In this document: one piece after another, positions 15,516 through 63,720 of the stretch
Numbering within the stretch: the first letter of the stretch is position 1
How the letters are laid out: the number at the start of each line of letters is the position of its first letter
Translations under genes and position numbers: made by a program
NCBI RefSeq assembly: GCF_963921235.1
Contig: NC_086108.1
Coordinates: 45,882,001 to 45,946,000, forward strand
DNA from: Mobula hypostoma
Taxonomy: Eukaryota
Length of the DNA stretch: 64,000 bases
Direction of reading: 5' to 3'
The notes under the pieces: generated by a model
The model's database searches: none
What the model saw: only the letters and a program-made list of their open reading frames with translations
What the model was told of the DNA's origin: nothing

Positions 15516-15551
15516 AGTCGACGTTTCGGGCCGAGACCCTTCGTCAGGACT
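15516..15551 (-). ncRNA. Minimal type I hammerhead ribozyme motif (PLE-associated), antisense to LRP8
   Basis: Minus strand reads AGUC-CUGACGA-A-GGGU(CUCG)GCCC-GAAA-C-GUC^GACU. Confidence 0.8.
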
Positions 15552-16141
15552 AACTGAAGGAAGAGTGAGTAAGGGATTTGAAAGTGGGAGGGGGAGAGGG
15601 AGATCCAAAATGATAGGAGAAGACAGGAGGGGGAGGGATGGAGCCAAGAGCTGGACAGGTGATAGGCAAAAGGGATATGAGAGGATCATGGGACAGGAGG
15701 TCCGGGAAGAAAGACGGGGGGGGGGGGAACCCAGAGGATGGGCAAGGGGTATATTCAGAGGGACAGAGGGAGAAAAAGGAGAGTGAGAGAAAGAATGTGT
15801 GTATATAAATAAATAACGGACTTCTCTAACTTCCGCTAATGCCCCACCTCCCCCTCGTACCCCAGCCGTTATTTATTTATATACACACATTCTTTCTCTT
15901 TCTCTCTCTTCCTTTTTCCCCCTCTGCCCTCTCACTATACCCCTTGCCCATCCTCTGGGTTTTCCCCCCCTCCCCCTTTCTTTCTCCCTGGGCCTCCTGT
16001 CCCATGATCCTCTCATATCCCTTTTGCCAATCACCTGTCCAGCTCTTGGCTCCATCCCTTCCCCTCCTGTCTTCTCCTATCATTTTGGATCTCTCCCTCC
16101 CCCTCCCACTTTCGAATCTCTTACTCACTCTTCCTTCAGTT

Positions 16142-16177
16142 AGTCCTGACGAAGGGTCTCGGCCTGAAACGTCGACT
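16142..16177 (+). ncRNA. Minimal type I hammerhead ribozyme motif, sense to LRP8
   Basis: AGUC-CUGACGA-A-GGGUCUCGGCCU-GAAA-C-GUC^GACU; predicted cleavage after 16173. Confidence 0.8.
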
Positions 16178-16727
16178 GTACCTCTTCCTAGAGATGCTGC
16201 CTGGCCTGCTGTGTTCACCAGCAACTCTGATGTGTGTTGCTTGAATTTCCAACATCAGCAGAATTCCTCGTGGATGTTTTCACTTCCCTCTTTCTTGTTT
16301 ATTGTTTATGCCTAACTCCAAGAGCCGTACAGCACAAGTGCAGACCCTTTGGCCTGATTTCTTACAACATCTCTGGTGCTCCTTTGCACTTTGTCAATGA
16401 CTGAACATCTCGCATAAGGTAAATATTGGAAGTAAATTTGTGTCAAAACCTTTCATCAGAACTAAAGGAAGCTGATTGACCTTGTAATATTAATTTTCTC
16501 CATATACAGTGCCCTGTCTACTGAGTATTTTAAATAATTTCTTTTCCCAATCTTCATAACCTTCATAAAAAAAGTAACAGTATTTGTCTTTATGTTCATA
16601 GTGTCCTCCAAGCTACGTATTTATTTTGTGTTCAAGTTACACATTTGGCATATCATTAAGTTAAGTCATTCTATGTACACTTGAGGTCTCCAACTGTTTG
16701 CAGGGCTGTTATGCAGAACACAGCCTC

Positions 16728-17520
16728 TCAGTATACAGTGATGGCAGAACCTTCGATTGCACTGCTTCCCCACAATGCCTTTGTGTTAGCTGAGCCCAAC
16801 ATCAGTGCAGCCTTTAGCATGTCCTCCTTCAGCCTGGAACGCACCAGGTAGCAACATTCACCTGTTGTACTGGGGAACCTGCAAGTTTTGGGTTGATCAA
16901 AGTGCATTTTTTTTTTGCTGAGCTGATGATCTTCCAGCAGCACCTGATGTTTGTCTTGGCGTGCACCCCTCAAAGCAGCTCTTGTACCAGAAAGTCTTCT
17001 GTTATGCAGCTGCTGGAGACAAAGCTTGACCTTTGCCAGACCTTCTCTTCAAGGCACAATCTACAAAGAGCTTGATCTCTCCCTGATTGCAGCCATCACG
17101 AAGATGATGTATGAGATTGACTGGGGGAAGGACCTGATGGGGAATGCTTCTCTTGCAGCCAGCACACTGAGAGTACCTTGCGCCTGATGACCAGGGTCTT
17201 GCCTGTCTTCAAGAGGAAGCTCTGTTCCCATTTTCCCTACTTTATTTTGAACTTGTTGATCTCATCCAGCTAGTTTTTATGTTTCACCCAGATCCCTAAC
17301 ATCTTCATATAGTCAGACTTGGCATTGAAAGGAATGGAGGATTGATTGGACCAGTTGCCATAATGCATGGCCTTGTACTTCTTGCAGTGACTCAAGTTGT
17401 TGAGGTAAATCGGTTGCAGATACTAATCTGTAAACTTAATGAGGATCTGAGCAGAAGATGACGACATTGTCCATGTACAAGCTGGCTTTGATCTGAGAAC
17501 TTGCACTTTATCCTTCATGC
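16728..17520 (-). mobile_element. L1/Tx1-like LINE ORF2 3' remnant
   Basis: Minus-strand peptide ECCYLVRSRLKEDMLKAALMLGSANTKALWG resembles the C-terminus of fish Tx1-type ORF2; upstream boundary approximate. Confidence 0.6.
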
Positions 17521-17576
17521 CTGTATCTTTCCTGACAGATTCAACAGACAGTTCTACACAATTCACAATTAAAACA

Positions 17577-20750: not shown

Positions 20751-22643
20751 GAGACAGCAGAACTCTACCTGTTATTCTCCATCCTGTGCTATGTAATGGA
20801 AAGAGATTACCAGGTTACAGAGAAAAAGGTTCAAGGATGTGTTCGAAGTCTCCTGGATAAAATGCAAAATGGCAGTAGCAAGGAGAGAACATGGCTTTGG
20901 ATGCTGGATGCTGCTTTCTTGTGCCAGTGTTCGTTGTAAAGTGACCAAATAGAGAAGGAATATTTGAGAGCTTTATGTTCATGCATTGGCAGCACGCAGA
21001 AGCTCTGTGTAGTTGGGGGAAGAAGTGATCCACCTTATAAACTGTTCTAATACCTGCCACAGGCCACGCTGTGGGAGAGTTTGTGGTTTCCATATTAGCC
21101 TCATCAGCCACTTCAGATCCCACAATGTCAGAGTGGGAGTAAGTCAATGACAGGTCTGATTTGACTAGCACAGTGCAGCTAGATTTGGAGCTTTATATTG
21201 ATGATCTTCAGTTTTTTGCTTTTTTTTTCATATGGCTGATTGGCGGGTGGGTGACCTGTTAGTTTTTTTTGTGTGTGAGGTAGGATTTGGGGGTTTGATG
21301 TTACTGTTACTCTTTGTTTCTGTGAGTGAGGTGGTCGGAGATTGTTATTGTCACTTTTTTTCTGCAGGGGAAGGTTGGGGATTGTTATTGTCCCTGTTTT
21401 TTCCTGCAGGGGAGGGGTAGGGAAGTTGATGCTATTGTCACTTTTTTTTCTACAGGGGAGGGATTGTGGGATTTTGGGGCTTGCAAATTTTGTATCTTTT
21501 TCTTTTTGGTGCTGTGGGTGTTAATTGGTGTTTTTTTTTAACAACTCCCTTGGTCCTCTGTATGTAATGGCTATCTGGAGAAGGCAAGTATACAAGTTGT
21601 ATTGTATTTGACAGTAAAATAAACCTTTGAACCTTTGGAGCTAGAAGTGGATCTTGATGTGGGACCTGGGGTTCTGATATGGTCCCCAGATAACCTGGCC
21701 TCAGAGGAATGTGAGAGGAATCCTGTCTGCAACCATATTCTTCACAGCACTTATCCTAACCCCCGCCTGATGATGCCAGGCTGCACCTCCTTTAAAGAGT
21801 TGTGGCTGTCCGTTGTCTCCAGGAATTGCTGGTGTGGTCGGCTGATGGAAGGGGCTGCTTGCTTGATGAGTGATCAGATATAGCAGACTTGTACTACTTC
21901 AATAGCAAGACACTTATGACTTGTCGCCCACAAGTCAGGCCTCGTATGCTTGCATAAGTAACTGGCAAAGCATTAAGCTGTAACTGACTCTTACTGTGGA
22001 TGGGCCAGCATGGACTATGTAGCCCAAGGATCTTCGACATATCCCTAGATCAGGCTGTCCACCTACTGTTCACCAGTTAGTGTGCTTAGGCCTGTAATCT
22101 TTTGGTATGTGGGTGCAGCTGGTCCCTGTATAGAACTTGATAGTTATCCATAATAGGAACAAATGTTATTGAATTTATTATAAAGTTATCCAGTCCCTTG
22201 TTTTGAGCCAGTGGAAATGTTACCTAGTCTGATTAAGTTTAAGTTAGAGCTCTGGAGGAGAAAAAGTAACTGATTACTGATCTTGCAGTTTATTGGAAAG
22301 TTTTCCTGCTTTGGAATATTGCCCAGACATAAATGCTATTTTTTTTGGAGAAAGTTTGTGCAAAGTGCCAGTAGTTTACAACAATGTTGCAAACTCCATT
22401 GGCTACTTGTACCTATTAAATAAATGTCCATTCATCAGGGAATTCTTCAGAAGCTGTACCTGTCAAACCTGAAACTTGGGCTGATACATGTCCTTTCCCC
22501 CAATGAATATTTAAATGAAGTATCTGCCTGCTTTTTGTGCATATGAAACAGTGGAAAATTTGCCAGAATTTTGGTTTAATGAATGCTCAATTTGGTTTTT
22601 ATTTTCATGGTGCTAACTGTTGGATATTCTGCTTACCAAACAG

Positions 22644-22766
22644 CTAAGAACACTTGTGCCGCAACGCATTTTACCTGTGACAATGGAGAATGCATCTCGG
22701 GGAACTGGCGCTGTGACGGAGAAGAAGAATGTACAGATGGTTCAGATGAGGCAGATAAATTGTGCA
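22644..22766 (+). CDS. LRP8: LRP8 exon, LDLa repeat (LA2 equivalent), 123 nt, phase 1-1
   Basis: cag|CTAAG...TGCA|gtgagt; translates [40 protein letters not shown]. Confidence 0.93.
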
Positions 22767-23769
22767 GTGAGTAACATATTTAAAGAGACTTTTATTGAAT
22801 TATGCCACAATTTGGAAAAAAAAATGACATTGTGTTAAACATCAAGATAGCTGGTTGTCTCTGTGAATTCATGCTCATTTTTTAACTATTAAATAGAGGG
22901 AAGTTTGAGTAAATATCTAGTAGAATTCATTTCTTAATAACACTTGGGTATGGTGGGAGTCAAAGCTTGTGAATATCAGTGTTGCATGTGAGCCAAAACA
23001 ATACATGTCGTGGTATTATGGTTGAAGCTGTTCCTGTCCTTGTCTATTTTCCATCTGTGTACAAGATATAAAATGAGCAGGAAATTCCCAAAATAGCATC
23101 ACTGTTACAGGTCACTGATCCTTAGAAATGTTTTCATCTGTTTCCAGATGTTGGAAATTTGAGACCAGTTTTTGCTTCAGTTCCAATATGATTTGCTGAC
23201 CAGGAGTGCATGCCCTTGCTGCAGTTTTCCTTCTAGCCAGCTGTGCAGGTGTAGTGATGGTTTGAATTATCTTATTCTGTGTAGGGAATCAGCTCTGGGA
23301 CTTCCCTGGTTTATATGGCTCAGCCTGACTCTTGGATGAATATTTTCAGTGTGAATTATGAAGTGGAGCTAAAATTTGTTGATCTTAGTGATCTGTATCG
23401 AGTAATAAGAAACATTGTTGGAGGGTAAGGACAGGTGGTTAAAGAACCTTTTGTCCTGTGGATTTTTTTGTGTAAGGCCCATCCTCTTGTCTGTTTCAGT
23501 GAAAGCGAACATTGTGACTTGGAGTTTGGCCTCAAGGGCATATCATTAGAAGCACTGACAATGTACTGCAGTCTGACAACTGAGGTTCAGATGAACTTGA
23601 GTCCAGAATGTAGTTGCTGTGGGTCGACACTTTCATGTTAGTTCTGATCCTGTGGCAGGATTGTTAATGAGGTGCAGAATGAATAGGGGGATACAAGTGT
23701 AAAGGCAATGATAGAGCTTTGTTTGACCCCAGTCTTCACTGAGGTTCGCTCTATTGTAGACTCGTTGTT

Positions 23770-24100
23770 TACAGCCCAGCATTGTGTGGCTAGGCACAGC
23801 TCAAACGGTATTTATAAATTTGACAATGACACAACTTTTGTTGGTGGGATCTCAAGGAGGCATGCAGGAGGGAGATCGTTCAGGTGGAGTAGTGGTGTTG
23901 CAACAACAGGCTTGCACAGTGTCAGTAGGACCAAGTAGGCCAGTAGGACTTTTTACTTTTACTTATTTAACTTTTATTTAATATATACATCGTAATTTAT
24001 AGTTGTTTTTTATTATTATGTATTGCAATGTACTGCTGCCACAAAACAACAAATTTCACGACATTTGCCAGTGATACTTAACCTGATTCTGATTCTGAAT
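23770..24100 (+). mobile_element. Rex1-like LINE fragment with (CTGATT)n tail
   Basis: CVARHSSNGIYKFDNDTT; tail AACCTGATTCTGATTCTGA. Confidence 0.7.
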
Positions 24101-24279
24101 CGTGTCTTGTGTAGCATTGTAAAGGATGTACAAGACGGAGGAAAATTTCTGTTGGTAGCCTACTTTGAGAAGAATGCTCTACAGTCCCTTGGACTAATCG
24201 AGTGAATGGCTTTAGCAAGGTCAATAAATCTCCTCCCTGTATGTGCGGTGAAGATCGTGTCAGCTGTGCTATGACATGG

Positions 24280-24578
24280 ACATTATCACCTCCCCTTGGA
24301 ACCCCTCCTTCTTCCCTTTAACCCATGGTCCACTCTCCTCTCCCATCAGATTCCTTCTTCTCCTGCCCTTTATCCTTCCCGCCCACCTGGTTTCACGTGT
24401 CACCTTCTAGCTAGTCCTTTTCCCCCTCCTTCTCTGTTTTATTCTGGCATCTTCCCCCTTGCTTTCCAGTCCTGAAGAGGGGCCTCAGCTTGAAATGCTG
24501 TCCTGACCTGCTGAGTTCCTGCAGTAGTTTGTGTGTGTTGCTCTAGATTTCCAGCATCTGGTAAATCTCCTGTGTTCT
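24280..24578 (+). mobile_element. PLE 3' end fragment with degenerate hammerhead
   Basis: AGTCCTGAAGAGGGG...TGAAATGCTG, followed by CCTGCTGAGTTCC...TTTCCAGCATCTG tail. Confidence 0.7.
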
Positions 24579-25489
24579 TAAACCAAGCTGATTGATTGGT
24601 AGAGCAGTACTTTAAAATGGGGAGGAGTGTGTTTGAGAGGCATTTCCTGTGGTCAGCATCAGCCACCCTTTCCTCTCCTTCTTTCAAAGTGATCACGATT
24701 ATGGCACCTCTGAGGACCCCAGCAAAGTTCTCACTTCTCCGTTGTCAAAAGTTGGGTTATGGGTTTGTGAACTTTGCCAGGGATACCATTTGCTCTTGAA
24801 GCCTTGTTGATTTTAAATTGGGATATGGCCGCCTTGGCAATGTGCTGATCAGAGTGATGGTGAGACGGCACTGAATAGGCTGCTGTAGAGCTGAGAGTGC
24901 TCACAGCAAGGATGGAGAGTTCTTTGACTGTTCCTCCCAATGGGTATTGTCGTCCTTGATAAGCTCATCTTTGTTCTTGGTTTTGACTGCAGAGGAGCCT
25001 TGAATGTTTATGCCACGGAGGGCCTTGCTGGCACTGAGTAATCTTCCTTTGGCACGCTGGTGGTCAGTAGCTGAACCTCCTGCACCAGACTCCCAAAATA
25101 AATGCTCTATCCTGAGTGTTATGCAATGAAATTGCCAAATGAATAGAGGAAAAGACTAAAGAATGCATTCAAAACAGTTTCAAAATGCAATGTCTTGTAT
25201 ATCCCTGGCCCATACTTGCTCAACGTAGAGAAGGAGTATTCAGAATGCTATTAGGAAATGCAAGTCATCCATGTGTTTGGACTAAACAAAGGACCTGTGT
25301 AAATGGCAGGAAGAGTGCAACACCTCACCACTTCAACTACCTCCTCCCTCATGTATGGAAGATTGGCATGCTCATCAGACACATTGGGTCTCATACAGCC
25401 TGCGTGGACACATCTATCCTGAGGGATGATCTATGAGGAAGAAGAAGGGGGAGAAGATCATCAACAACAATCGGAGCCAAGAAAGAAAG

Positions 25490-26582
25490 AAGCAGTGGAA
25501 AGGGTGAGCAGTTTCATGTTCCTGGGTGTCAGCATCTCTGAAGATCTATCTAATCCCCAGACTACTGATGCAATTACAAAGAAGGCAACCCAGCTAAATC
25601 CTATATTTCATTAGGAGTTTGAGAAGACTAGCAAATTTCTACAGATGAACTGCAGAAGAGAGCATTCTAACTGGTTGCATCACCGTCTGGTATGGAAGGG
25701 TCACAGAACAGGACTGGAAAAAGCTTCAGAGGCTGCAAACTCAGCCGGCCTCCATCATGGGCACCAGCCTCCCAGCATCAGGGACACCTTCAAAAGGCAA
25801 TGCCTCAAGTTGGTGACATCCATCATTAAGCACCTCCATCACCCAGTAGGTGACCCTTTCTCATTACCTGTCATCAAGGAGGAGATACAGGAGCCTGAAG
25901 ACACACTCTCAAACTTTTAGGAACAGCTTCTTCTGCTCCATCATCAGATTTCTGAATGGACAATGAACCCATATACACAACTTCACTAACGAGAGAAAAT
26001 CTGCAGATGCTGGAAATCCAAGCAACACCCACAAACCGCTGGAGGAACTCAGCAGGCCAGGCAGCATCTATGGAAGAGAGAACAGTCGACATCCTGTCCG
26101 GCTGAAGGGTTTTGGCCTGAAACGAGGACTGTACTCTTTTCCGTAGATGCTGCCTGGCCTGCTGAGTTCCACCAGCATTTTGTGTAGGTTACACAACCTC
26201 GCTGTTTTATTTCTGATTTTTGTTGTCTTTTTCCACCACCTATTTAATTTCTAAAAATATATATCGTATTGTAATTGTATTTTTTATTTTGTATTGCATT
26301 GTACTGGTGCCGCAAAATAACTTATTTCCTGACATACGCCAGTGATATTAAACCTGATTCTGATTCTGAATCTGATCATGTGGCAGTAACTCAATGCAGA
26401 CATGGTTATGAACACTACCTCACTGTGCTTGCTCTCTTTATGCATTGCTCATTTATCTTAATTTTTTAATATACTGTATATTTCTTATTGTAGCTTATAG
26501 TATTTTTTATGTGTTGCATTGTACTGCTGCTGCAAAACAGATTTCCTGACATATGTCAGTGATATTAAACCTGATTCTGATT
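25490..26582 (+). mobile_element. Rex1-like LINE 3' fragment(s) with two tails, interrupted by a palindromic PLE insert
   Basis: AVERVSSFMFLGVSISEDL; GATATTAAACCTGATTCTGATT tails near 26345 and 26562. Confidence 0.75.
25988..26189. mobile_element. 202-bp fold-back PLE-end insertion with 14-bp TSD
   Basis: Minus-strand PLE tail followed by a plus-strand partial copy; flanks TACACAACTTCACT (25974-25987) / TACACAACCTCGCT (26190-26203). Confidence 0.8.
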
Positions 26583-27019
26583 GAGTGGTTAACTGATGAC
26601 TTCGCTGTTGCTGGTAAAGAGCTCTGCTGGAGTACATCCTCAACGCGGCTGTTACAAACACATTGGTTTTCATGGTACTAACCAGTTTGAAAGAACTAAA
26701 TGAGGAAACCCTATTGAAATTAATTTTTCCTTTAATTGATTCTTTTGGAAGGATACGGTTTCACATTTCCATCTCTTTTATCAAGTAATATTTAATCGGG
26801 GATAGGCTGCATAAGGAACTCAGCAAGTTAATCAGCATCTGTGGGAAGAAAAGAATTTTTGACATCTTGGATCAAAACCATGCATCAGAACTGAGGACAC
26901 TTCCTTTCTACCTACAGCTATTGCTTGACTTGTTGAGTATTACCAGCATATTGTTTGTGGCTCCAGATTGCAGCATCTCTATTCCCCAGTAACTCCACAG
27001 ATTTCTGAGAGGGAAAGCT

Positions 27020-27640
27020 AATCTCATTACTTTGATTGAGATTTTGTAGGGTAACTAAAGATTGTTGAAGTCAGGTCAGTAGGCATTGTCTATATGGACT
27101 TCAGTTGGGCTTTGGACAAGGTTTTGCATGATAAGTTGGTCCAGAAGGTTAAGGAACATGACATCCAAGGTGATCTGGCTAATTGGATCCAAAATTAGCT
27201 TGTTGATAGGAGGCAGATGGTAGTGTTAAAGGTTGTGGTTGCACCAGAGAGAATTCAGAGGAGATACACTAGGATGTTTGAGTTGGAGAGAAATGGGGTG
27301 AGATTCGATAGGCTAGGCTTTTTTTCTCAGGACTGAAAGAGGCCAAGAGGAAACATGACAGAAATATATAAAATTATAGAAGGTATAGAGTAGAAAGTCA
27401 GGACCTTTTTCTCATTACAGGTATATCAAAAATAAAAGAAGAAAGACATAATGTGAGAAGAAATAGTTTTAAAGTAGACTTAAGGTGATAAGCTTTTGTT
27501 TGATATCTAGAATTGGCCGTCAGAAGACGTGATGAAATCAGATGCATTTCAGAGATATTTTAGGCAAGCACTTGAATAGGCAAGGCATAGAATGGTACAG
27601 GCCTGATATGTAATATGGGCAGATTAGATCCCTGAATGAA
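27020..27640 (+). mobile_element. Old CR1 LINE remnant
   Basis: Degenerate RT text (GTCTATATGGACTTCAG...GGACAAGGTTTTGCATG; AATTGGATCCAAAATTAGCTT). Confidence 0.6.
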
Positions 27641-28734
27641 CCAGCATGAATCAAGAGTGTACTCTATCAGATCAATTGTGAGAATGTGGAAGGTATGCAT
27701 GCGGCTGTCTGATAGCGTGGTGAATCGATTGGGCCCCCTACGCACGGGGAGTGCTCTCCGTTGGCGCGGACTTTCGAGTGCACATGCTTTTTGTCTCTGC
27801 AGGCCCAGTTTGTTGCTCCCATGATCTAAGTTGCCAGCGTGTACAGTTACTAACATGACTCAGTAAATACCTTTAACTACTGTTTGCTCCACCCTTTCAG
27901 TATGTAATACAGAGGCCTTTTCTGTGCTGTACTTGTCTATGACCCGAAGCTTATATTCTTCTATCTATTCACCTGCCTTGTGGTTATTGCCATGGGCTAT
28001 TGATGAGGGAAGACATCTACATTCTGTCCCATGAAGGCCAGGGACTGCTGAACTTTTAATTTTGATTAGTTACCAAGATTTTGAGTCAGCCTGTCCAGTG
28101 GCACAACACTGTATTAACATAATGCTGGCAGAGAAGAAAGTCACGTGACACTTTGCCAGCCAGTAGAAATCTGTTCGGGCAAAACAATGTCCATGAATTG
28201 ATGGTTGACTACCATATGTATGATACCTTGTTCTGGGTTTAATGATGACTGTCCCTGTATGCTAGCAAATTTATTATGAAGGTGGCAAGTCAGATAGCAG
28301 CTGGAATCTCCAGCCAATCTTACAAACTAGCTCCTACCCAGAACCACACATACAAAGTGCTGGAGGAATTCAGCAGGTCAAATAACATGTTAGGATGTAG
28401 AATGACTTTGGTATGAATGTATGTAGTCCAATTCTCTTCAGACTCCTCAGAAAGTAGAGGCATTGGTGAGCTTTCCTGACTGTGTAGGATGTGTTCGGGA
28501 CCATGAAATGTTATGCATTTGCAGGAGTTTGAAACTTTGGAAAACATCCTCTCCACCCTTTTATTCTCCTCTTATAAACTCAAGTGGCTTTAATGTTCTG
28601 AGCATATCAACCTACTTTGCAGCTGGCTACATTTCATAAGCTATTTGTTGTCTGGTCATCTGTAGCAATGGTGTTTCCTGAAGCTAGCAGTGGTGATAGC
28701 GATGAACTGCCTTGTGGTGATAAATTTGTAGCAC

Positions 28735-29990
28735 ACACTACAAGCTGGAGGAACACAGCAGGTCAGGCAACATCAGGCTGGGACCGTTCATCAGAACAGG
28801 AAAGGAAGGGAGAGTGTTGAAGCTTAAAAAAAGATGAGGGGTGGGGAGGAATAGAAGTGAGCTGGTGATAGGTGAGACTGGACCAGGGAGAAGGTGGGTC
28901 TGTGCGTGGGGGAGGGGGGGAATGATGTGAAAAGCTGGGAGGTGACAGGTGGAAGAGGTAGAGGATAGGTTAGGAGGTGGGGCACCAGAGGGAGGTGATG
29001 GGCAGCTCATGAGAGTGGGGTGGGGGGGGGAGAGGAGAAGGGATGAGAGAATGGGGAATCAAAAGAAAAAAGAGGTGGAAGGAGTGGAGTCATTACCAGA
29101 AGTTGGAAAAATTGATATTCATACTATCAGGTTAGAGGCTACACAGTTGGAATATGAGCTGCTGCCCCTCCAATGTGCATTTGTCCTCATTGTGACAGTG
29201 GAGGAGGCCATGTTGGAATGGAAGTCAAATTAAAATGGATGGCCACCAGGAGATGCTGCCTTTTGTGGCAGACAGAAAAGGTTCTTGACACATCTGCTTC
29301 AGGTCTCACCAATGTCGATGAGGCTACGCTGGGAGCACCAGAAATAATAAATGACCCTGATAGACAGTGGTGCTTCACCTGTGAACCTGATGATGTGCTG
29401 GTTATGGATGCTTGGTGGTGAGGACAATGGTAAGGGTTAAGGGGGGTGGAAATGAAGAAGATACAGGTGAGGACAGCTTCTATAGTGGAGGAAGGGAAAC
29501 CTTGTTTTCTAAAAAAGTGGCATCTCGGGTGTTCTCGAATGGAAAGCCTCATCTTGAGAACACATGTAGAGGAAATAAGAGAAGGGAATAGTCTTCTTAC
29601 AAGTGACAGGTGAGAAGGGGCATAGTCTAGATAACTGAGGGTCAGTGGGTTTGTAAAGGGTGTCCGTAGATAACCTCCAGAGGTAGAGACAGAACACTTA
29701 AGAAAGGGGAGAGAAGAGTAAAAGAGAGGTGTCAGCGATGGACCAAGTAAATTTGAGGGCAGGGCGAAAATTTGAGGCAGCACTGATGAAATGAAAGAGC
29801 TCAGCATGGGTGCAGGAAGCAGCATCAATGCAGTCATCAGAAAGAGTTGGGGAGTGTTATCAGTGTAGGCTTGAAACATGGGCTGTTCCACGTAACCAAT
29901 TGAAGAGGCAGGCATAGTTCAGGCCCAGGCGAGTGCCCATGGCTACACCTTGGGTTTGGACAAAGTGTGAGGAGCCAAAACAGTGATTGC
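28735..29990 (-). mobile_element. Penelope-like retroelement, RT C-half/GIY-YIG/3' UTR remnant
   Basis: Minus strand encodes PLE RT-like GVAMGTRLG...GYVEQPMFQAY; ends in the same tail family as the hammerhead-bearing copies. Confidence 0.8.
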
Positions 29991-29999
29991 TGAGGATAA

Positions 30000-50324: not shown

Positions 50325-51170
50325 ACTGGTGCACCTCAAGGATGTGTGCCCAGCACACTGCCCTACTCTCTCTACTCGTGAGTGTGTGGCCTGGCCCAGC
50401 TCAGTGCCATCTATCCATTTACTGATGGCACAACTATTACCAGAATTTCAAATGGTGACAAGGAAGGAGGTGTTCAGGAGTGAGGTGGATCACCTAGTTG
50501 AGTGGTGCCACAACAACAACTTTGCATTTAACATCAGTAAGAACAAGGAATTGCTTGAGGCCTTTAGGAAAGGGAAGCCTAGGGAGCTCACACCAGTCCT
50601 TATCGAGGGATCAGCAGTGGAAAGGGTGAACCGTTTCAAATTTTTGGATGTCCAGATCTCTGAAGATCAATCCGGGATGAACATATTGATGCAATTATTA
50701 AGAAGGAATGACGCGTCTATATTTCATTCGAAGTTTGAGGAAACTTACTATGTCATCAAAGACTCTAGCAAATTTCTACAAATGTACAGTACAGAGCATT
50801 CTAACTGGTTGTATCATTGTCTGGTATGGAGTGGCCAGTGCACAGGATTAGAAAAAGCTGCAGAAAGTTGCAAACTCACCAGGCTCTATCATGGGCACGA
50901 GCCTTTCCAGCATCAGGGACATCTTCAAAAGGCGATGCCTCAGAAAGGTAGTGTCCATCATTAAGGACCCCATCACCCAGGACGTGCCTTCTTCTCATTG
51001 CTACCATCGAGGAGGGAGAGGAGACTGAAGAGAGACACTCGATGTTTAAGGAACAGTTTCTTCCCTTCTGCCATTAGATTTCTGAATGGACAATGAGCCC
51101 ATGAACACTGCCTCAGTATTTGTTTTTCTTTTCACGTCATATGCCAGTAATATCAATCCTGATTCCAGAT
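50325..51170 (+). mobile_element. Rex1-like LINE 3' fragment
   Basis: LVEWCHNNNFAFNISKNKELLEAFRKGK...AVERVNRFKFL; tail AATATCAATCCTGATT. Confidence 0.8.
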
Positions 51171-51907
51171 TTTAGTTTCTCTGTCCATCTTTTCCTATCT
51201 GTAAGATAATGACTGGCTGAGGATTTCAGTAAGGTTTCAGAATTTCATTAGTATTGTTGAGAGTTTCACAGTGTAGCCAAATCCTCTCCTCTGCTGTTTG
51301 GAGGGGTACAGTTTGAAGCAAGTGACACTTGATAGGTTGACAGGTTTTCCTGCTTGGTTCCTATTTCTTCCTATCTTCGATTCAAAGACAGTTTTTAAGA
51401 GCCACAATGTCTTGGGTTTTTACTTTGGTTACTATATTGGCTGTTTTAATTTTGCATCATGATCTGGTGATGTGGTTTTCTGATTCTAGAACAATATTTT
51501 TATTTGTGCTGTTTTTGCATATCTCAAAATAATAGCAGTTCATAACCGGGATCAACATTGAAACAATTCTAATTTAAAGTTATGCTTGGCGCAGCATTTG
51601 AATTGCATTTGAAATGCGAATGCAAGATGTAACTGCTGCAGTTGGTGGCCCGAAGATCACAAGGATTCTGCACGGTTTGATCTTTCAACCTTTCAGATCA
51701 ATGTAGTGGAAGGTGTTAATATTAAAGAGAGAGAATAAACTACAGCCACTAGTTATTAGTGAGGGAACGCACCTCAGCATTGCAGATGACTGGAGCAACA
51801 TTGTACGAGATCCAAGAAAAACGTGCCAATATTGAAACGTGTTTGATGTTTCGTTCCCATGCTCACTTATTTTGACTGCTTTTTACTACATCACCTTTCT
51901 GTTACAG

Positions 51908-52049
51908 GACAAGATTTACTGGACTGACAATGAGCATGACTCTATCTACTGTGCAAATAGACTGAATGGGGAAGATATTATGTTACTTGCAAATAACCTG
52001 AACAATGTACACGACGTTGTCATTCTTCATGAACTAAAACAACCCAAAG
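51908..52049 (+). CDS. LRP8: LRP8 exon, beta-propeller part 5, 142 nt
   Basis: tacag|GACAAG...AAAG|gtaact; DKIYWTDNEHDSIYCANRLNGEDIMLLANNLNNVHDVVILHELKQPK. Confidence 0.95.
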
Positions 52050-52435
52050 GTAACTCCAGTCAGAATCTGCTTCATCAAAATGTTATGCAGGCAGCCACCA
52101 CATTGTGATGTTGTGTTCCCAGAAAACACTCTGTTTCTTGACTTCCTGCAACACAAAATCTCATCATCTGCACAAATCAAGAAATATGAGTTGAAACACC
52201 AATCTCTGTTAATTAATTTCCCCTCTGGTTTCTCCTTCAACATATATTTCATAAGAGCAAATTTTTATTCCATTTCCCAGACTTCCTGGTATTTCCAAAT
52301 TTTGTGAATTGCATAAGGGTTAATTTCAGTAACTGAAACTGCTGCATTGTGGTGGTTGCCTATACAATCTTATGGAGCATCTTTTTTCCAAATTTTGTCT
52401 TTTTTTAACCTCAACATCTTTCTATGCTTAACCAG

Positions 52436-52588
52436 CTGTAAACTTCTGTGTACATGGCAGTACAACTAAGGGAGGGTGCCAGTATCTGTGTTTGCCTGCT
52501 CCCCAAATCAGCAACCACTCTCCAAAGTACACGTGTGCCTGCCCTGACGATATGGAACTTGGGCACGATATGAGAAAGTGTTACAGAG
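52436..52588 (+). CDS. LRP8: LRP8 exon, EGF-C, 153 nt
   Basis: accag|CTGTA...AGAG|gtatgt; [51 protein letters not shown]. Confidence 0.94.
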
Positions 52589-53519
52589 GTATGTGTATCT
52601 TTTCTGCTCATTTTAATTATGCTTTTTTTTCAGCTTTTAAGAATGGAGTGCCTTCACAGGCTAAAGCCCTTCAGGATTCTTTAGGTTTATTAAAGGGTTT
52701 GAATAAGGTACTCACTAATAAATGCAATAAAGAATTCATAAACAGCTTTAGGAAGGAGATGTCGAGGGGACCCACACTGGCCCTCATCGAGGGGTCAGCA
52801 GTGGAAAGGGTGAGTACTTTTAAGTTCTTGGTTGTCAGCATCTCTGAGGATCTATCCTGGGCCCAACATACATGTAATTCCCTGGTTAAAATTGTATTTC
52901 TACCACTATGCTGTTAGGCATTTTATTTTGGCAGTTTTCTGCAAACAAGAGTGTGCTCTGTTAGTTAAGCTTCATAGACTACTGTTTTGGCTTCAGCTGA
53001 GATGAGGAGCCATTTGCTCAACTTGGGAATGTTGTGTCAGCCAATTCCGTTTCTCTTGGTAACATGTTGTAACATTCTCCCAGTGGGATGGTATGGATCA
53101 TTCGAGAGAGCTGAACGGCAACAGGTTGCTGAAGGACAGCAGTCTGGTTTTGGTCTTTTGGGATGGGAGGTGTTGGAAGAGGAGGTGTGGAGCGGAGCAC
53201 AAGGGAAGATGCTTGCGGAATGCCACTCGAAGGAGAGTCCCCGTTGTCAGGAGTGCTTTGCGCAGACGAATGGTTCCCAGTAAGGAGTGCCAATACTCCT
53301 GAATTAGCCAGTTTGTTGGAATTGGTCTTCGAGGAAAGTTCGAACTGTGGCTGGTGTCCTGCTGGCAGAACATGGGGTCAGTGCATGAGTAATCAAAGCA
53401 AAGTACCTGACTGCTCCAGAAATGAGCTCCAATGTTTATGTGCACGTTTAGTCTGGTTTACCTGTGCTGGGTCCTTGACATTTTCTTGCCCATTAACTGT
53501 TAAAGTTGAAATATCTGTA

Positions 53520-53940
53520 AGTATTCTTCAGAAAAAATCTTCAGAAGTTGTAAACTCAACCAGCTCCATCTTGGGCACTAGCTTCCTCACCATCAATGAC
53601 ATCTTCAAAAGATGAGGCCTCAGAAGGCAGTATTCACCTTAAAGACCCTCATCACTCTGGAAATGTCTGCATCTCATTATTACCGTTAGAGGGGAGGTAC
53701 GGAATCCTGAAGAGACACACTCAACATTTTAGGAACAGCTTCTTCCCTGCTGCCATCAGATTTCTGAATGGATATCAAATCCATGAACACCTCCTTACTT
53801 TTTTTGCACTCTTTTTGCACTAATTTAACTTTTAAAATATATTTCTTATTATAATTTACAGTGTATTTATATATTGTACTTACTGCTGCAAAGCAACAAA
53901 TTTCATGACCTTTCAATAATAGTAAACCTGTATCTGATTA
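53520..53940 (+). mobile_element. Rex1-like LINE 3' end (related short piece at 52750-52870)
   Basis: HFRNSFFPAAIRFLN and the typical tail. Confidence 0.7.
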
Positions 53941-54228
53941 ATTAAGGAATGGTTAGAACTTTGCCACAGGGAAGGTTAAGGCACCTTGCACCTTCCCATT
54001 TAAGAGAAAGCTTGAAACCAGCAATCAGGAGGTTGTATGAATAAAGGGCTAGATGAAGAGTAACAGAAAATGATTTGTGCAAATCACTGACCTGTTTGCA
54101 TTGTTATACATTCTATATAATTCATATTGCTTGCAAACCCGACTTGCCTTGTGTAGTTGCTTTGAGCTGTTTACATTGAAGTTGAGGTTTCACAGTCTAT
54201 AGTTCTGTCTACCTTTATTTTATAATAG

Positions 54229-54438
54229 TTGGAGGGCTTCCCTCAGTGACCAGCAACAAGTCAACTCCAAAATCCGACGCGCCTTTCTCCAGTGTCTGGG
54301 GTCCTGCAGATACAACTACAATGCCTGGTGCAGTGGTTCTGAACAGTGTCACAGGAGGCCCTCAGTGGCCTTTTCCTTTTGAGGCAAACAGCACTGACGC
54401 AGACAGCTTGATCCGCAGTAACAGGTCCTCACCGTTAT
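54229..54438 (+). CDS. LRP8: LRP8 exon, O-linked sugar (Ser/Thr/Pro-rich) domain, 210 nt (alternative in-frame acceptor at 54247)
   Basis: aatag|TTGGA...TTAT|gtaagt; phase 1-1; S/T/P-rich (VGGLPSVTSNKSTPKS...NSTDADSLIRSNRSSPL); lies between EGF-C and TM exons as expected. Confidence 0.8.
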
Positions 54439-55158
54439 GTAAGTCCTATTGGTATAAATCTCTTCCGATTTGCTGCTCATATCATACACCGAGGTGAAGC
54501 TTGCAACTTGATTTCATACTCCATTCAACTTGGCCACCTGCTTTCTGCTTGTGCAAAGAAGGGGCTGAGGATTGACATCAGCACATTCCATTTTGGTGGT
54601 CTGCTTAATCATGTAGGAAATCATTTGAAGTAATAACATCTAGTGTGGGTGTGAGGCAGGCCTGATTTTTAGCATCTATTCCTTCTCAAATCCACTATTT
54701 TGTTCTTTTAATGGGAAACTGAATTTCTCGTCTCCCCTCCCCTCCCCTCCACATGTGACTTTTATTTCTTCAGATAATCTGCCATTTCCGCTCCCATACC
54801 TTGGAGCTGGTACAAGTCATCCCTCTCAATTTCCCTGTCATGTTCCAGACTGAGCTTTTAAGATCAAAGCTTGATGTTGCCTCACCACTACTCGATTTGC
54901 TTCCACTCTCGCTCTTGACAGCTTTTCCAGCACTTTCCAAAAATATTGCAAAACTAAAGCAGTGTCTGCACTTGCATAGGCCTTGCAATTGTTCCTTCTG
55001 CACTAGTGTTCATGTACCAACATTCAAATACCCGTTGGCATAGACCTTTTCTCTGCCCAAAACACGGACCTTTTATTCCTCTCCTTAGATGCTGCCTGAC
55101 CTGCTGAGTTCCTCCAGCACTTTGTGTGTGCTAACCTTTTTTTCCCTTTTCTCACCAG

Positions 55159-55227
55159 CAGCCAACCAGGGAAAAGACAAGAAGTCAACTTCAACCAATG
55201 CTATTGTGGGAATTGTCACTCCTATAG
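55159..55227 (+). CDS. LRP8: LRP8 exon, juxtamembrane region and first half of TM helix, 69 nt
   Basis: Long pyrimidine tract, then caccag|CAGCC...ATAG|gtgggt; SANQGKDKKSTSTNAIVGIVTPI. Confidence 0.88.
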   Translation, partial: QPTREKTRSQLQPMLLWELSLL

Positions 55228-55630
55228 GTGGGTAATTATGATGTACTGCTTCTTGTTTGTTGAATGATCTCTTTCTTGTCTTGCTGAAGAGGAATACAGA
55301 TTTTAACTTGGTGCACCTAATGTGTCTGTCAGACGCCACTAGGTAGAGGCAAAATGAAGCCTTATATGTGCCCTATTTCACAGATAACCTTGCAACAACT
55401 GCCATCAAATTCAGGTCACAAAGATAAAAGACTTGTCACCAGCTCCCTGTATCATCGAGTCCCTATGATGGAGCAGGAAGTATTCTTTCCCTGAAAACTG
55501 AGAATTCCTGTGTAGTGCTAAATGCAGCCATATCAGCTGAGCTACAGCAGTCTGTGGAGGATTAAAAGATTGTGACCATTTTTGTATTCCTTTCTACATC
55601 TCCACGGGAATGATAGTACTTCATGTCAAG

Positions 55631-55737
55631 CATTTCGCTTCGCCGGCACATATACTAAAGTTGGAACTATACAGAGAAGGTTAGCATGGCCCCTGCATAA
55701 AGATGACGTGCAGATTTGTGAAGCATTCCATATTTTT
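55631..55737 (+). pseudogene. RNU6: U6 snRNA pseudogene
   Basis: Colinear with U6 (TCGCTTCG..GCACATATACTAAA.TTGGAAC.ATACAGAGAAG.TTAGCATGGCCCCTGC...TTCCATATTTTT); about 13 substitutions by hand count and the first 4 nt do not match; no TATA box at the expected upstream position. Confidence 0.9.
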
Positions 55738-55761
55738 CATTTACCTTATGAATTACAGGAA

Positions 55762-56010
55762 GCACGGTTAGTGCAGTGGTTAGCGTCGGCAGTAAGATGG
55801 GGATTGGATTCCCACCACTGTAAGGAGTTTGTACATTCCCCCTGCTGCTGCCTGGGTTTCTTTCGGGTGTTCCAGTTTCAAAGGCGTATGGGTTAGTGTT
55901 ATTACGATGTAGACGTGCTTTGCTGGCGCTGTAAGCGACATTTCTGAACAGCCCAGCACAATTCTTGCCTATTTGATTTGATGCAAATGACATATATGTG
56001 ACAGATAATC
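55762..56010 (+). mobile_element. Degenerate V-SINE/HE1-like SINE
   Basis: A-box-like TAGTGCAGTGG, then V-domain-like GGAGTTTGTACATTCCCC...TGGGTTTCTTTCGGGTGTTCCAGTTTC. Confidence 0.6.
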
Positions 56011-58123
56011 TTCATTCTTCACACTAATCTGCGCTCTGTCATGCTCTTGGTGATACTTCAGCTGAATGGAAGATGGAATGGCTCATCGAGTAACTGAGGA
56101 GTTGTCTTGTGATTTGAACAAGATGCCCTATACTCAAAGATGGTTTCACTGAATCAGGAAATTCTAAGCACAATTGACAAGAGTGATGACGCAAAGATGT
56201 TTCCCTTGGTAGTCAATCTAGGCTAGGGTTACAGATCTTTGAAGTTCTCTGTTCCAGAGATATATGGATGCTGAGTAATTGAATATTTCAAAGATTGAGA
56301 TAACTTTCTAAACAAGAGAATTGTGGGTTTCAGGGAGCAGGTAGAAAAATGGGGCTGAGACCATACATCTGATCAGTTTTAATATAGAATGGTGGAGCAA
56401 ATCTCAAGGGCCTTCTACCCTGCTCCTGGTGCTTATGTGACAGTTAATTAGCTGTGCCTAAACAGTAACTGTTAGAAGAGACTTGTTTGACAACCAGTGC
56501 CTTGAAAAGATTCAGAAACCCATATAATCCCAATTAATTTGTGCTGATAATATTGGCCAAGGATAATTTTACTTTTGCCTTCTGTTCATGCCAGATTATC
56601 TGCCTCTTTTGTGATGTTATGAGGTACTGATCAAAAAAGTCAAAGTATCAAAATCAAGGGTCTTGATTGCATAAATATAGAGATGGATAACCCAAACATA
56701 GTGAATTTAAGCTCATGACTAATAATTTTAGTGGGGAACTATGGGAAGGGGTGGAAATGCAAGTGTGGTTAAAATGTGGAACTACGTGGATAATGTTGGC
56801 AAATTACACAAATTCATTTGTGGTGAAGCCAGATTGCACAACAGAGAATGGAACATATGACAGTGGGATTAGCTAAAGTGGTAATGGGAGCAGAGACATG
56901 TGGAACAAAATGTAGCCGTTTGGTCAAGTGGCTAGATTTGGTGCTGTTAATTTAATGCACATTCTTTCTATGGATTATTTTTCTGATCAAATAAAAACAT
57001 TCAGATGAATAGAATCAGAAATGCATGCGGGGCATAATGAATGCAAACCTTTGACACATAACTTTACAGCAGGTACTTAAAAGAAGTAGAAGTGTCAGCT
57101 AATGTAATATCAAGTGATGGATGGCAGTGATAATATTTTTGGATATATGATGCCTTGATACTTCAAAATATCGGGACGTCCTGGTAAAATTAACAAACTA
57201 CATTATGTGCAAGTGTTCAAAAATCAAAAATACCAGAATCCATCTTGATATTTTCTCCATATATAGCTGCCCGTAATGGGGGGGAAAAGATCGAACGTGA
57301 TGTCATATTGAACTATGGTGTGATCACCAGGTGCAAATGATGCATGGGAGGCATCAACATTAAACCATCAGTTTTACAACCTGAGGTCACTCCATTCCTT
57401 TTTAGTGTCAACACTTCTTCCTTAATTTTCAATTTCGCTGAAGTTCCTACTGGAATTAAACAGAACCCATTTTAAGTTTTAGATTAGAGGTTGTGACCCA
57501 CTGACATTTAATGACTTGCATGGATATAACAGTTAAACCAAGGAAGAAGGTATAGACTTGCTTGAAGGTGCCACAGTTTTTTATTAAATAAAACTACATC
57601 TGAAGAATCCTTATGGTTATAACTAGCTCTTTCCCACACCAGCTACCCACCTCCCCTTCTCTCCTTACCCCGGCTGGACTCCTTTTCTGATTGTGTATCA
57701 ATGCTGGATCCCATCCATGATCAAAGTGAGATCACAGAAATGAGAGGGTAGTGGCCTACCAGTCTGATTAACTATTTTGTAAAAAGTTGATTGTACTTTC
57801 AATTAGTCTGAGTAGATGTATTGAGCCAATCATTTATATTAATCAGTGACACATTTAAGCTTTGAATTTTGTTCTCATCATTGGCTGATCAATTCTATAT
57901 GTAGTGCTTCAAGGTTTCAAAGGTACATTTAATGTCAGAGAAATTTATACAATATGCATCCTGAAATGCTTTTTCTTCACAAACATCCACGAAAACAGAG
58001 GGGTGCCCCCAAAGACTGAATGACAGTTTAAATGTTAGAACCCCAAAGTTCACCCCCCCAATCCTCTCCCTCCTGCACGTAAGGGGCAGCAAGCTACGAT
58101 CCTTAATAAGAAACGATTGCCTA

Positions 58124-58163
58124 ATGTTTCTGACGAAGGGTCTCGGCCCGAAACGTCGAATGT
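58124..58163 (+). ncRNA. Hammerhead ribozyme motif at a 5'-truncated PLE end, sense to LRP8
   Basis: AUGUUU-CUGACGA-A-GGGU(CUCG)GCCC-GAAA-C-GUC^GAAUGU; predicted cleavage after 58157. Confidence 0.7.
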
Positions 58164-58220
58164 ACCTCTTCCTAGAGATGCTGCCTCGCCTGCTGTGTTC
58201 ACCAGCAACTTTGATGTGTG
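58132..58220 (+). mobile_element. 89-bp PLE end insertion with about 15-bp imperfect TSD
   Basis: Flanks TTGCCTAATGTTTCT (58117-58131) / TTGCTTAATCTTTCT (58221-58235); body near-identical to 16148-16236. Confidence 0.75.
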
Positions 58221-58298
58221 TTGCTTAATCTTTCTTCTGTGTTTTGACTGATAAACTGTACTGATCAACTAAATTGTAATTTCTATCGCTCTTTTCAG

Positions 58299-58471
58299 TG
58301 ATCATTAGTTTGGTTTGCCTGGGAGGCTTTCTGATATGGAGGAACTGGAGAAAGAAGAACACTAAAAGTATGAACTTTGACAATCCAGTCTATAGAAAAA
58401 CAACAGAAGAGGAAGAAATAGAGGAGACCCAAATTGGAAGGAATGGGCAGATTGGCCACGTGTACCCTGCA
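58299..58471 (+). CDS. LRP8: LRP8 exon, TM end and cytoplasmic FDNPVY (NPxY) motif, 173 nt
   Basis: ttcag|TGATC...GCA|gtaagt; [58 protein letters not shown]. Confidence 0.96.
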
Positions 58472-60980: not shown

Positions 60981-61225
60981 AGTGCGGTGTTTTCAGGCAA
61001 AAAGCAAAGAGTGAAATGAACTGAATTGCCCTTTGATGAAACTAGAGTGGACTTGGCTGCACAACCTCATTGATAACCTATTACTACGGCAACTATGATT
61101 TTGCTCAACTTTTCCCAGGAAGCATAGGTTTCTTTTTCTTTCCTGTTTCTCCCTGTGGTGTCAGAACCACATCATGGACTGTACGTTGCCTTCTGCAGTC
61201 ATCAAACAAGATCTTCAGTCCTAAA

Positions 61226-61760
61226 TGTTATGTTTTGTAAATCCAAAACATAAAGCTAATCAAAAGAAAGAGAGGGAAAAAGTGTGCGCTTTATTTTTAC
61301 TTCTAGTGAAGCACGCTCATATGACCTGGTGGCACAGAGACGTATGCCATTTATGTACTTTTACATATAACCCGTAATGAATTATGTAAACAACAAAGAA
61401 TGCTTAATCAAACAATATATTTACAATATTACTCAATACTAAATGCTCTTCACTCCTCCCTGATTAGCTATATAAAGTCTAACTCAATATAGAATACATC
61501 TCAACAGTATACACAGTATACTATATAATGTTATATATTATATAATGTATAACTATTATATAGTATATAATAGCAAATTTTTAATTGCCCCATTCAGGCC
61601 TAAAGATTTAATTGCTGTGGAAAATTTTTTACTCTTGTGGGAAACTGTCTTTCCTGAAAAGGCCGGGGGTCACGCTGCTTGGTGGATGAGACTTTGCCGC
61701 CTCCATGGTGGTTGTAGGAATTGACTCTGGATCTGCAGGAATTAGTTTTGACACCTCTGG
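61226..61760 (-). mobile_element. 5'-truncated Gypsy element: pol C-terminus, PPT (61453-61460) and 3' LTR (61226-61452)
   Basis: Minus-strand ORF ends ERQFPTRVKNFPQQLNL*, like RRSQRTCKPPDRLYL* of the element at 2135; GGGAGGAG|TG junction; LTR homologous to 18198-18435. Confidence 0.75.
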
Positions 61761-61829
61761 ACACCTTTCTTCTGGGCGTGTCGACTTGTGAACAGTGCAT
61801 GGCGATCTGCTGGTCCATTACAGGCCACC

Positions 61830-62215
61830 AGACAAAGCTTCAAGCCAATGCTTTTGTTTTGACTATGCTGCCTGGATGACCAGCGTGCAACTCCTCCAAC
61901 ACTGTAGCTCATTATGGCCGAAGGGGAGGCTATGGACCAACATGTCGGAATGGGAATGGGGATTGAAATTAAAATGGAGCCACCAGGAAATCCTGTTTTT
62001 TGCAGATAGAGTGAAGGTGCTCAACGCAGCAGTGCCCAATCTACGTTGGGTCTCACCAATGTAGGGTAGCCTGCATCGGGAGCACTGGATACAGTGGCAG
62101 CCCCAACAGATTCACAAGTGAAGTGTTTCCTCACCTGGAAGGACAGTTTGGGGTCCTGAATGAAGGAGCAGGAGGAGGTGAATGGACAAGTGTAGCTCTT
62201 CTGCTTGTGGGGATC
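61830..62215 (-). mobile_element. PLE GIY-YIG endonuclease remnant
   Basis: Minus strand YTCPFTSS...PKLSFQVRKHFTCES and YIGETQRRLG-like text. Confidence 0.72.
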
Positions 62216-62282
62216 AGTCCTACACACTTCCTTGGCTCTGCACTGTTTTCTTTTCATTTCAGCTTAATTTAAATTCCCTTTA

Positions 62283-63720
62283 GAAACATAGAAAACCTAC
62301 AGCACAATACAGGCCCTTCGGCCCACAAAGCTGTGCTGAACATGACCTTACCCTAGAAATTACCTAGCGTTACCCAAAGCCCTCTATTTTTCTGAGCTCC
62401 ATGTACCTGTCCAGGAGTCTCCTAAAAGACCCTATTGTATCTGCCTCCACCACAGTCGCCGGCAGCCCATTCCACGCACTCACCACTCTCTGCGTTTTTT
62501 AAACAAAAAATTTACCCCTGACATCTCCTCTGTACCTACTTCCAAGCACCTTAAAACTGTGCGCTCTCAACGCCAGCCATTTCAGCCCTGGGAAAAAGCC
62601 TCTGACTATCCACATGATCAATGTCTCTCATCATTTTATACACCTCTATCAGGTAATCTCCCATCATCTGTCACTCCAAGGAAAAAAGGCTGAGTTCACT
62701 CAACCTATTCTCATAAGGCATGCTCCCCAATTCAGGCAACATCCTTGTAAATCTCCTCTGCACCCTTTCTATGGCTTCCACATCCTTCCTGTAGTGAGGC
62801 AACCAGAACTGAGCACAGTACTCCAAGTGGGGTCTGACCAGGGTCCTATATAGCTGCAACATTACCTCTTGGCTCCTAAACTCAATCCCACGATTGATGA
62901 AGGCCAATGCACCGTATGCTTTCTTAACTACAGAGTTAACCTGTGCAAACACGAGGAAATCTGCAGATGCTGGAATTTCAAGCAACACATATAAAAGTTG
63001 CTGGTGAATGCAGCAGGCCAGGCAGCATCTCTAGGAAGAGGTACAGTCGACGTTTCGGGCCGAGACCCTTCATCAGGAAACGTTGATTGTACCTCTTCCT
63101 AGGGATGCTGCCTGGCCTGCTGTGTTCACCAGCAACTTTTATGTGTGTTGAGTTAACCTGTGCAGCAGCTTTGAGTGTCCTATGGACTCAGACCCCAAGA
63201 TCCCTCTGATCCGCCACACTGCCAAGAGTCTTACCATTAATACTATATTCTGCCATCATATTTGACCTACCAAAATGCACCACCTCACACTTATCTGGGT
63301 TGAACTCCATCTGCCACTTCCTAGCCTAGTTCTGCATCCTATCAATGTCCCGCTGTAACCTCTGACAACCCTCCACACTATACACAAAACCTCCAACCTT
63401 TGTGTCATCAGCAAATTTGCTAACCCATCCCTCCACGTCTTCATCCAGGTCATTTATAAAAATCACCAAGATTAGGGGTCGCAGAAGAGATCCCTGAGGC
63501 ACACCACTGGTCACCGACCTCCATGCAGAATATGATCCGTCTACAACCACACTTTGCCTTCTGTGGGCAAGCCAGTTCTGGATCCACAAAGCAATGTCTC
63601 CTTGGATCCCATGCCTCCTTACTTTTTTAATAAGTCTTGCATGGGGTACCTTATGAAAAGCCTTGCGGAAATCCATATAGGCTTTACCTTCATCAATGTG
63701 TTTAGTCACATCCTCAAAAC
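62283..63720 (-). mobile_element. CR1 LINE RT and 3' end, interrupted by a palindromic PLE insert
   Basis: YMDFRKAFHKVPH...WIQNWL...SGVPQGS...FINDLD...KFADDTK; LYRTLVRPHLEYCAQFW; tail (TAGAAACA) at 62281. Confidence 0.93.
62948..63149. mobile_element. 202-bp fold-back PLE-end insertion with perfect 15-bp TSD; hammerhead core on - strand at 63046-63077
   Basis: GAGTTAACCTGTGCA at 62933-62947 and 63150-63164; minus strand reads CUGAUGA-A-GGGUCUCGGCCC-GAAA-C-GUC^GACU. Confidence 0.88.

Follow-up and report, generated by a model that had tools for sequence, protein, structure and literature searches.

Minimal hammerhead ribozymes have been described in the pseudo-long terminal repeats (pLTRs) of metazoan Penelope-like elements, in fish in the Xena, Poseidon and Neptune elements (Cervera and De la Pena, 2014; PMC4209133). 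The hallmarks given in that description include an extra base after position 9, a G10.1-C11.1 pair and a palindromic 15.2-16.2; the copies are mostly solitary and truncated, some form opposite-strand pairs 100-700 bp apart, monomers were inactive, and tandem dimers or trimers showed low activity. Among the EN+ Penelope-like elements, those of the Neptune/Nematis type carry a CX2-5CxxC linker, and such elements typically leave inverted 5'-truncated copies and may have a tail; the in vivo role of Penelope hammerheads is called unclear in the same article (Craig et al., 2021; PMC8557442). The Poseidon element PAc of Anolis cleaves in vitro (Frangieh et al., 2024; PMC11167929). A 2026 preprint reported retrozymes in one chondrichthyan, with one of nine dimers tested being cleaved, and placed 42-44% of Xenopus copies in introns, yet with intronic depletion after normalization (bioRxiv 10.64898/2026.07.22.740005). 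The present analysis concerns a stretch of 64,000 nucleotides of the Mobula hypostoma contig NC_086108.1 (hereafter the window, numbered from its first letter), in which ends of a Penelope-like repeat lie in and around an LRP8-type gene on the + strand. As judged from its sequence, the repeated motif is the already described minimal type I hammerhead of the pLTR of an abundant elasmobranch Penelope-like retrotransposon, and the copies at LRP8 are, with a probability of roughly 0.8, inert passengers.

Hammerhead motif of the repeat

Both strands of the window were searched with a descriptor of the minimal type I hammerhead, which required CTGANGA, an optional extra base, a helix II of at least 3 bp, GAAA, a paired 15.2-16.2 and a U-H triplet. 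Four matches were obtained, with C3 at 16146(+), 58130(+), 15547(-) and 63076(-), against a mean of 0.02 matches per window in 300 dinucleotide shuffles (0.003 when a helix I of at least four pairs was also demanded). The four cores are copies of one repeat, and hence the matches are not independent. The search bore out the repeated motif that an initial annotation, made from the letters of the window, had located at 15516-15551(-), 16142-16177(+), 58130-58157(+) and 63046-63077(-), and the cut sites predicted there, 16173/16174 and 58157/58158, were correct.

All four cores share CUGANGA, one extra unpaired A between 9 and 10.1, a 4-bp helix II, GAAA, a loopless ACGU (palindromic 15.2-16.2) and a GUC triplet; two are sense and two antisense to LRP8. 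Helix II is closed by G10.1-C11.1 in three of the four and by G10.1-U11.1 at 16142, and among 12 aligned window copies the 10.1-11.1 pair was G-U in five, G-C in three, A-U in one, unpaired in two and a gap in one. Helix I measures about 4-5 bp in the family and in two of the four copies (15516 and 16142), is wobble-rich at 58130 and is too short at 63046. The four hallmark features of PMC4209133 are thus all represented, G10.1-C11.1 in only three of the copies. The best-preserved motif, 15516..15551(-), antisense to LRP8, combines a helix I of 4 bp plus a wobble with G10.1-C11.1 and a loopless helix III. The initial annotation had called the cores intact, which is true of the cores and not of every whole motif, as only 15516-15551(-) is identical letter for letter to the motif it gave. 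Its assignment of the motif to a Penelope-like terminal repeat, as a minimal type I hammerhead whose helix III is a palindrome with no loop and in which A9 is followed by an extra base, is supported. Rfam at gathering threshold returned no hammerhead family in the 64 kb, only a U6 copy, and at E values up to 10 it returned none in 15400-16400, where the miRNA-like matches merely reflect a long hairpin.

The Penelope-like element

The broken frame 29482-29979(-), with X at stops, was used as query and gave 17 homologues among 185 candidates, the named ones being from rays, whale shark and a coral. A Pfam scan of seven of these 17 showed weak RVT_1 in four and weak GIY-YIG in three, with both in one protein and one match above the cut-off. 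Searched back on the window, the homologues marked remnants of the reverse transcriptase (RT), thumb and GIY-YIG regions at 29096-30119, 38468-38608 and 61872-62218. RT, a C-terminal GIY-YIG and a cysteine linker are all present in the close homologues P0008 and P0010 (the Pfam matches being weak), where the linker reads CX4CxxC; no intact copy was found in the window. P0010 spans RT and GIY-YIG and continues into the sequence with which both arms of an insertion start at 15717-15911, and tblastn aligned its residues 364-394 to 15819-15911 at 77%, placing the last codons and stop of the GIY-YIG open reading frame (ORF) at 15820..15840(+), at the start of the + arm. The order of parts is ORF stop, a pyrimidine-rich tract of about 320 nt, the hammerhead and a tail of about 70-96 nt. 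The sequence itself, the motif about 320 nt after the ORF stop, the 5' truncation, the inverted arms and the target-site duplications are seen directly.

The position of the motif about 320 nt past the stop of an RT and GIY-YIG ORF agrees with the 2014 description, so the element is of a kind already known. It shares with the minimal hammerheads of Cervera and De la Pena (2014) the type I topology, CUGANGA and GAAA, the unpaired base between 9 and 10.1, the missing loop 3, the short helix I, the prevalence of solitary truncated copies and the opposite-strand pairs; helix II has 4 bp here against 7-8 bp in the Schistosoma families. With the EN+ Neptune/Nematis type (PMC8557442) it shares RT followed by a C-terminal GIY-YIG, the cysteine linker of P0008 and P0010, 5' truncation, inverted 5' copies and an optional tail, and it is a candidate member of either the Neptune or the Nematis group. 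A hammerhead in the pLTR and a tail are features that it has in common with PAc (PMC11167929), likewise a Penelope-like element of a vertebrate. However, the PAc ORF start overlaps stem II, whereas here the motif was seen only downstream of the ORF stop, and cleavage, which was shown in vitro for PAc, is predicted for the present element. The motif also resembles those of non-LTR retrozymes, which are type I hammerheads derived from Penelope pLTRs (PMC7229834; bioRxiv 10.64898/2026.07.22.740005). A retrozyme in the window was rejected, since head-to-tail units were not found and the copies are solitary or inverted; there is no head-to-tail array, and no adjacent same-strand copies lie within the window.

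No cartilaginous fish is named in the accessible text of Cervera and De la Pena (2014), and two of its three supplement files hold no shark, skate, Callorhinchus, Leucoraja or Squalus. A literature search likewise gave no report of the motif in elasmobranchs, which is not proof of absence. The finding adds a ray-like fish to the range of a known pairing of ribozyme and retroelement, and tells little of LRP8 itself.

Further remnants of Penelope-like GIY-YIG and linker, with no recognizable hammerhead, were observed at 38150-38608(-) and 61872-62218(-). Three annotated ray proteins (P0002, P0005 and P0010) contain Penelope-like ORF sequence; two carry host gene names and one reads into the pyrimidine tract, and these annotations are likely artefacts or exonized copies. 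The out-of-frame ORF 29190-29918 had no counterpart among 3450 candidates and matched no Pfam family, nor did the stop-read-through frame P0001 match Pfam. The tail pattern had no match in viral contigs, and the six pattern matches of P0008 to viral loci were not confirmed. In metagenome contigs the tail pattern hit 114 loci, none clearly matching beyond the seed (best E 0.003), and these were taken as chance.

Hammerhead copies at LRP8

In tandem element transcripts, as deduced from the literature, the ACGU palindromes of two motifs would pair and the helix I strands would be exchanged, giving a double hammerhead, which would cut weakly after GUC and free the element RNA from a read-through precursor. 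The LRP8 copies are most likely dead-on-arrival insertions, in which the motif survives owing to their youth. Two of the four are antisense, one is zipped into its own hairpin and one is without the family helix I, and hence most likely no pre-mRNA is cut.

The motifs at 15516(-) and 16142(+) sit on opposite arms of a single Penelope-like insertion (15447..16285, both strands) lying between 15-bp target-site duplications (15447-15461 and 16271-16285). The inverted repeat extends over 271 nt at 93%, the arms differing at 18 of 271 positions. When the + strand of 15440-16290 was folded, 361 inter-arm base pairs were formed; each base of 16136-16183 was paired with the antisense arm at a probability of 0.997-1.0, and hammerhead helices I and II had probability 0. 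Keeping the 16142 motif unpaired would cost 81.6 kcal/mol. Transcription reaches the antisense arm, 600 nt upstream, before the 16142 motif, and the hairpin is expected to zip up as that motif emerges; the LRP8-sense motif at 16142..16177(+) is therefore predicted to be paired with 15516-15551 in the pre-mRNA. The 361-bp RNA hairpin at 15457-16236 is also a candidate substrate for the editing of double-stranded RNA (dsRNA).

The second sense copy is a young 5'-truncated insertion of 95 nt (58126..58220, +), with its core at 58130-58157; the exon at 58297 follows some 140 nt downstream. It is flanked by 9-bp duplications with one mismatch (58117-58125 and 58221-58229) and has lost the family helix I. 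Its present helix I has six pairs, three of them G-U wobbles, and two pairs are supplied by the target-site duplication; with the strands of 16142 or 15547 it forms 2 bp in each direction. The probability of its helix II in local context was 0.000. Even the best copy, folded alone, formed a rod with the core paired to the cleavage-site strand. A modeled active heterodimer of 16142 and 58130, with 2 helix I bp per core, lay 20 kcal/mol above two monomers, compared with 10-12 kcal/mol for homodimers, values of which only the ranking is meaningful as they omit Mg-dependent core contacts.

The orthologous site was compared in contigs of four runs out of 24, covering three other organisms (B, D and E). 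Contigs of D and E skip 104 bases (joint 58116-58221, runs X12 and X15), which is an empty orthologous site, whereas no empty-site joint was found in B, where a contig extends 16 bases into the insert and the site appears to be filled. The unique flank differed from the window at 48 of 1059 positions in D, 68 of 1051 in E and 12 of 1096 in B. The empty site in D and E indicates that the insertion is recent and not conserved. It also speaks against a domesticated intronic hammerhead at 58130. The amniote hammerheads of RECK, CTCL and DTNB (PMC6155905) similarly lie in introns of vertebrate genes; however, RECK-type hammerheads are orthologously conserved across classes, whereas 58130 is missing in relatives diverged by about 5-6%, and the window motifs are, unlike them, devoid of a helix III stem.

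The initial annotation had further inferred that 16142 and 58130 could dimerize to cut LRP8 introns, which is not supported, with 16142 predicted to be held in a hairpin, 58130 making only 2 bp of helix I with family partners and the insertion missing in two of three other organisms. Cutting by the sense copies, in cis or in trans with family RNAs, is accordingly judged very improbable. In its favor, each core is intact and has the orientation of the gene, a 58130 homodimer could make six wobble-rich helix I pairs, and trans partners may exist, as family sequence is abundant in run X9, guessed to be RNA (2501 contigs on the stretch). Yet 16142 would pair with an antisense arm transcribed earlier, 58130 would offer family-type helix I strands 2 bp and no local helix II, and the two copies lie 41,984 nt apart. 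A 2773-nt contig of the gene in X9 is identical to the window over the exon 58297-58471 and departs from the genomic sequence on either side of it, as expected of a spliced mRNA, and engineered dimers show low activity as reported in PMC4209133. The summed contig depth in run X5 (16.5 million, against 41.8 on the unique flank) does not give copy numbers and was not used. Cutting of host pre-mRNA by trans-dimers, if it took place, would add a new route by which transposons influence genes, but the evidence at this locus is against it.

Several results weigh against a hammerhead maintained for processing and carried passively at LRP8. Covariation among the 12 window copies showed no excess, as 124 of 500 shuffles reached the score and 338 of 500 the count of two-sided changes, decayed copies affording little power. 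In eight old copies the 11 core bases equaled the consensus at 60 of 77 positions (78%), compared with 65/119 in the upstream tract, 47/78 in the spacer after helix I and 158/185 in the distal tail; the upstream figure is lowered by non-homologous flanks of truncated copies, and neutrally decaying copies give little power. The conservation of the core over neighboring bases that the initial annotation had proposed as a check was thus found relative to the upstream tract and spacer, but the core ranks below the distal tail. Taken with the missing covariation excess, this mixed picture means that selection for catalysis is not demonstrated. Nearest-neighbor energies leave out proteins as well as Mg-dependent core contacts. 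Moreover, PAc ribozyme mutants were reported to insert normally in vitro, with no RNA-seq reads ending at the cut (PMC11167929), which weakens a role in processing. As the family is young and very abundant, intron strand bias and the distribution of 5' ends would permit a test of activity in vivo.

Splice-like signals and truncation points at the motif

All 13 arms in the window are 5' truncated, and their 3' ends vary. The 5' ends or inversion junctions that fall inside the hammerhead were observed at 26094-26106, 26890, 55051, 58126 and 63070-63081, 15-34 nt before the cut and none at the cut. Counted by arm, 7 of 13 start in that interval and 0 of 13 at the cut; five or six of the seven are inversion junctions or an end defined by a duplication, and loss of similarity may account for the others. 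Immediately ahead of the core, a pyrimidine tract that ends in YAG occurs at 16140-16143, 24469, 30431 and 41531, and GTAA stands at older ORF stops near 29090(-), 30120(+) and 38520(-).

These features invite a reading in which the fold is kept mainly for a non-catalytic job, either as part of a retained intron, with an AG acceptor that coincides with the first two bases of helix I and switches the motif on or off, or as a hairpin at which RT stops or switches template, or as both. Besides the start points of the seven arms, the pyrimidine content of the tract (0.77-0.83, ending in YAG before the core in five of the ten copies shown) and GTAA at three of four ORF ends are consistent with it. 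The intron of the D. virilis Penelope was reported to end at helix I (PMC4209133), and the anole element could do without ribozyme activity in vitro (PMC11167929). However, a search for spliced copies in the window returned a single match, itself an unspliced copy, the AG is needed for helix I as well, the ORF end of the young subfamily has no GT, the nhmmer start points of old copies may stem from eroded similarity, and young copies keep all catalytic bases. That the fold serves mainly such a job is hence regarded as unlikely. A slightly less doubtful, though still improbable, proposal is that the tract of about 320 nt is a retained spliceosomal intron with its AG acceptor in the first two bases of helix I, so that splicing would switch the ribozyme, while the 5' edge of the motif would be a hot spot of truncation and inversion that makes hammerhead-plus-tail units of about 100-130 nt. 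If the retained-intron reading were true, sense copies would act on host genes by providing cryptic acceptors and long dsRNA, not by cutting; in LRP8, the YAG-bearing sense copies could serve as such acceptors.

Contigs of organisms B and D (runs X5 and X12) aligned with 58130-58226 have at least 12 joints, listed with a bias to short ones; in 6 of 12, a tail is followed by a new copy starting 3-7 nt before the core. Such tail-to-motif joints create tandem units of about 35-110 nt that occur naturally elsewhere in the genomes of relatives, and dimer cleavage is more plausible for these than for the LRP8 copies, which on the preferred reading are inert passengers.

Other copies of the repeat in the window

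The remaining intact core, 63046-63076(-), antisense to LRP8, belongs to the minus arm of a young inverted insertion between 15-bp duplications (62933..63164), whose plus arm starts at the GAAA box. Its helix I has only 2 pairs because it adjoins the inversion junction. Inverted pairs were found at 15.4-16.3, 26.0-26.2, 26.8-27.0, 28.7-30.6 and 62.9-63.2 kb. The decayed copies that had been noted near 24468, 26100, 30430 and 41530 are present, and all fail the descriptor. The first is an older-subfamily end with a deletion after the core (24384..24566, +), and the second a short pair of opposed older-subfamily ends that meet within the hammerhead, where the core is broken (25994..26186, both strands). 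The third belongs to a decayed inverted Penelope-like insertion at 28713..30554 (both strands); its minus arm holds RT, thumb and GIY-YIG remnants (29096-30030), a pyrimidine tract and a hammerhead remnant at 28795, and its plus arm the end of GIY-YIG (30012-30119) and a broken hammerhead at 30434. The fourth is an older-subfamily end (41357..41655, +) that keeps CUGANGA and GAAA, with the cleavage triplet and helix III mutated. Further motif remnants lie at 28795(-), 26893(-), 19904(-) and 55051(+). An old, decayed inverted pair of ends occupies 26814..26977 (both strands), and a short old end that starts in helix II occupies 55051..55129(+).

The LRP8-type host gene and other repeats

The host gene extends over 22610..58471(+) with LDL-A, EGF, YWTD and transmembrane/NPxY exons. 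One YWTD exon scored best, among single-propeller receptors, with LRP8 (95 bits in one stretch, against 80-86 for LDLR and 78 for VLDLR). The exon of the cytoplasmic tail matched only LDLR chains in PDB. Its appearance is one that we take to be LRP8-type. No LDL-A exon was found in the window upstream of 22610, so the copies at 15.5-16.3 kb are intronic only if the first exons precede the window, and the last exon was not located in the window. The placement of the motifs in LRP8 introns by the initial annotation therefore holds as to the strand, the LDL-receptor family and LRP8 as best YWTD match, but not as to the first and last exons, and 63046 was not placed in an intron; the copies at 15.5-16.3 and 63 kb are likely intronic in LRP8.

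A copy of the U6 small nuclear RNA at 55632-55737(+) (88 bits, several substitutions) is probably a pseudogene in an LRP8 intron. A broken long terminal repeat retrotransposon at 2191-6816(+) has protease-, RT-, RNase H- and integrase-like frames and a terminal direct repeat of 175 nt (90%). Many pieces of repeats with RT-like frames, probably long interspersed nuclear elements and belonging to two or more further families, are scattered across the window at 9151-9976, 14011-14834, 25483-25995, 39492-39938, 44747-45358, 47699-48574, 50478-51125, 52726-53807 and 63259-63991.

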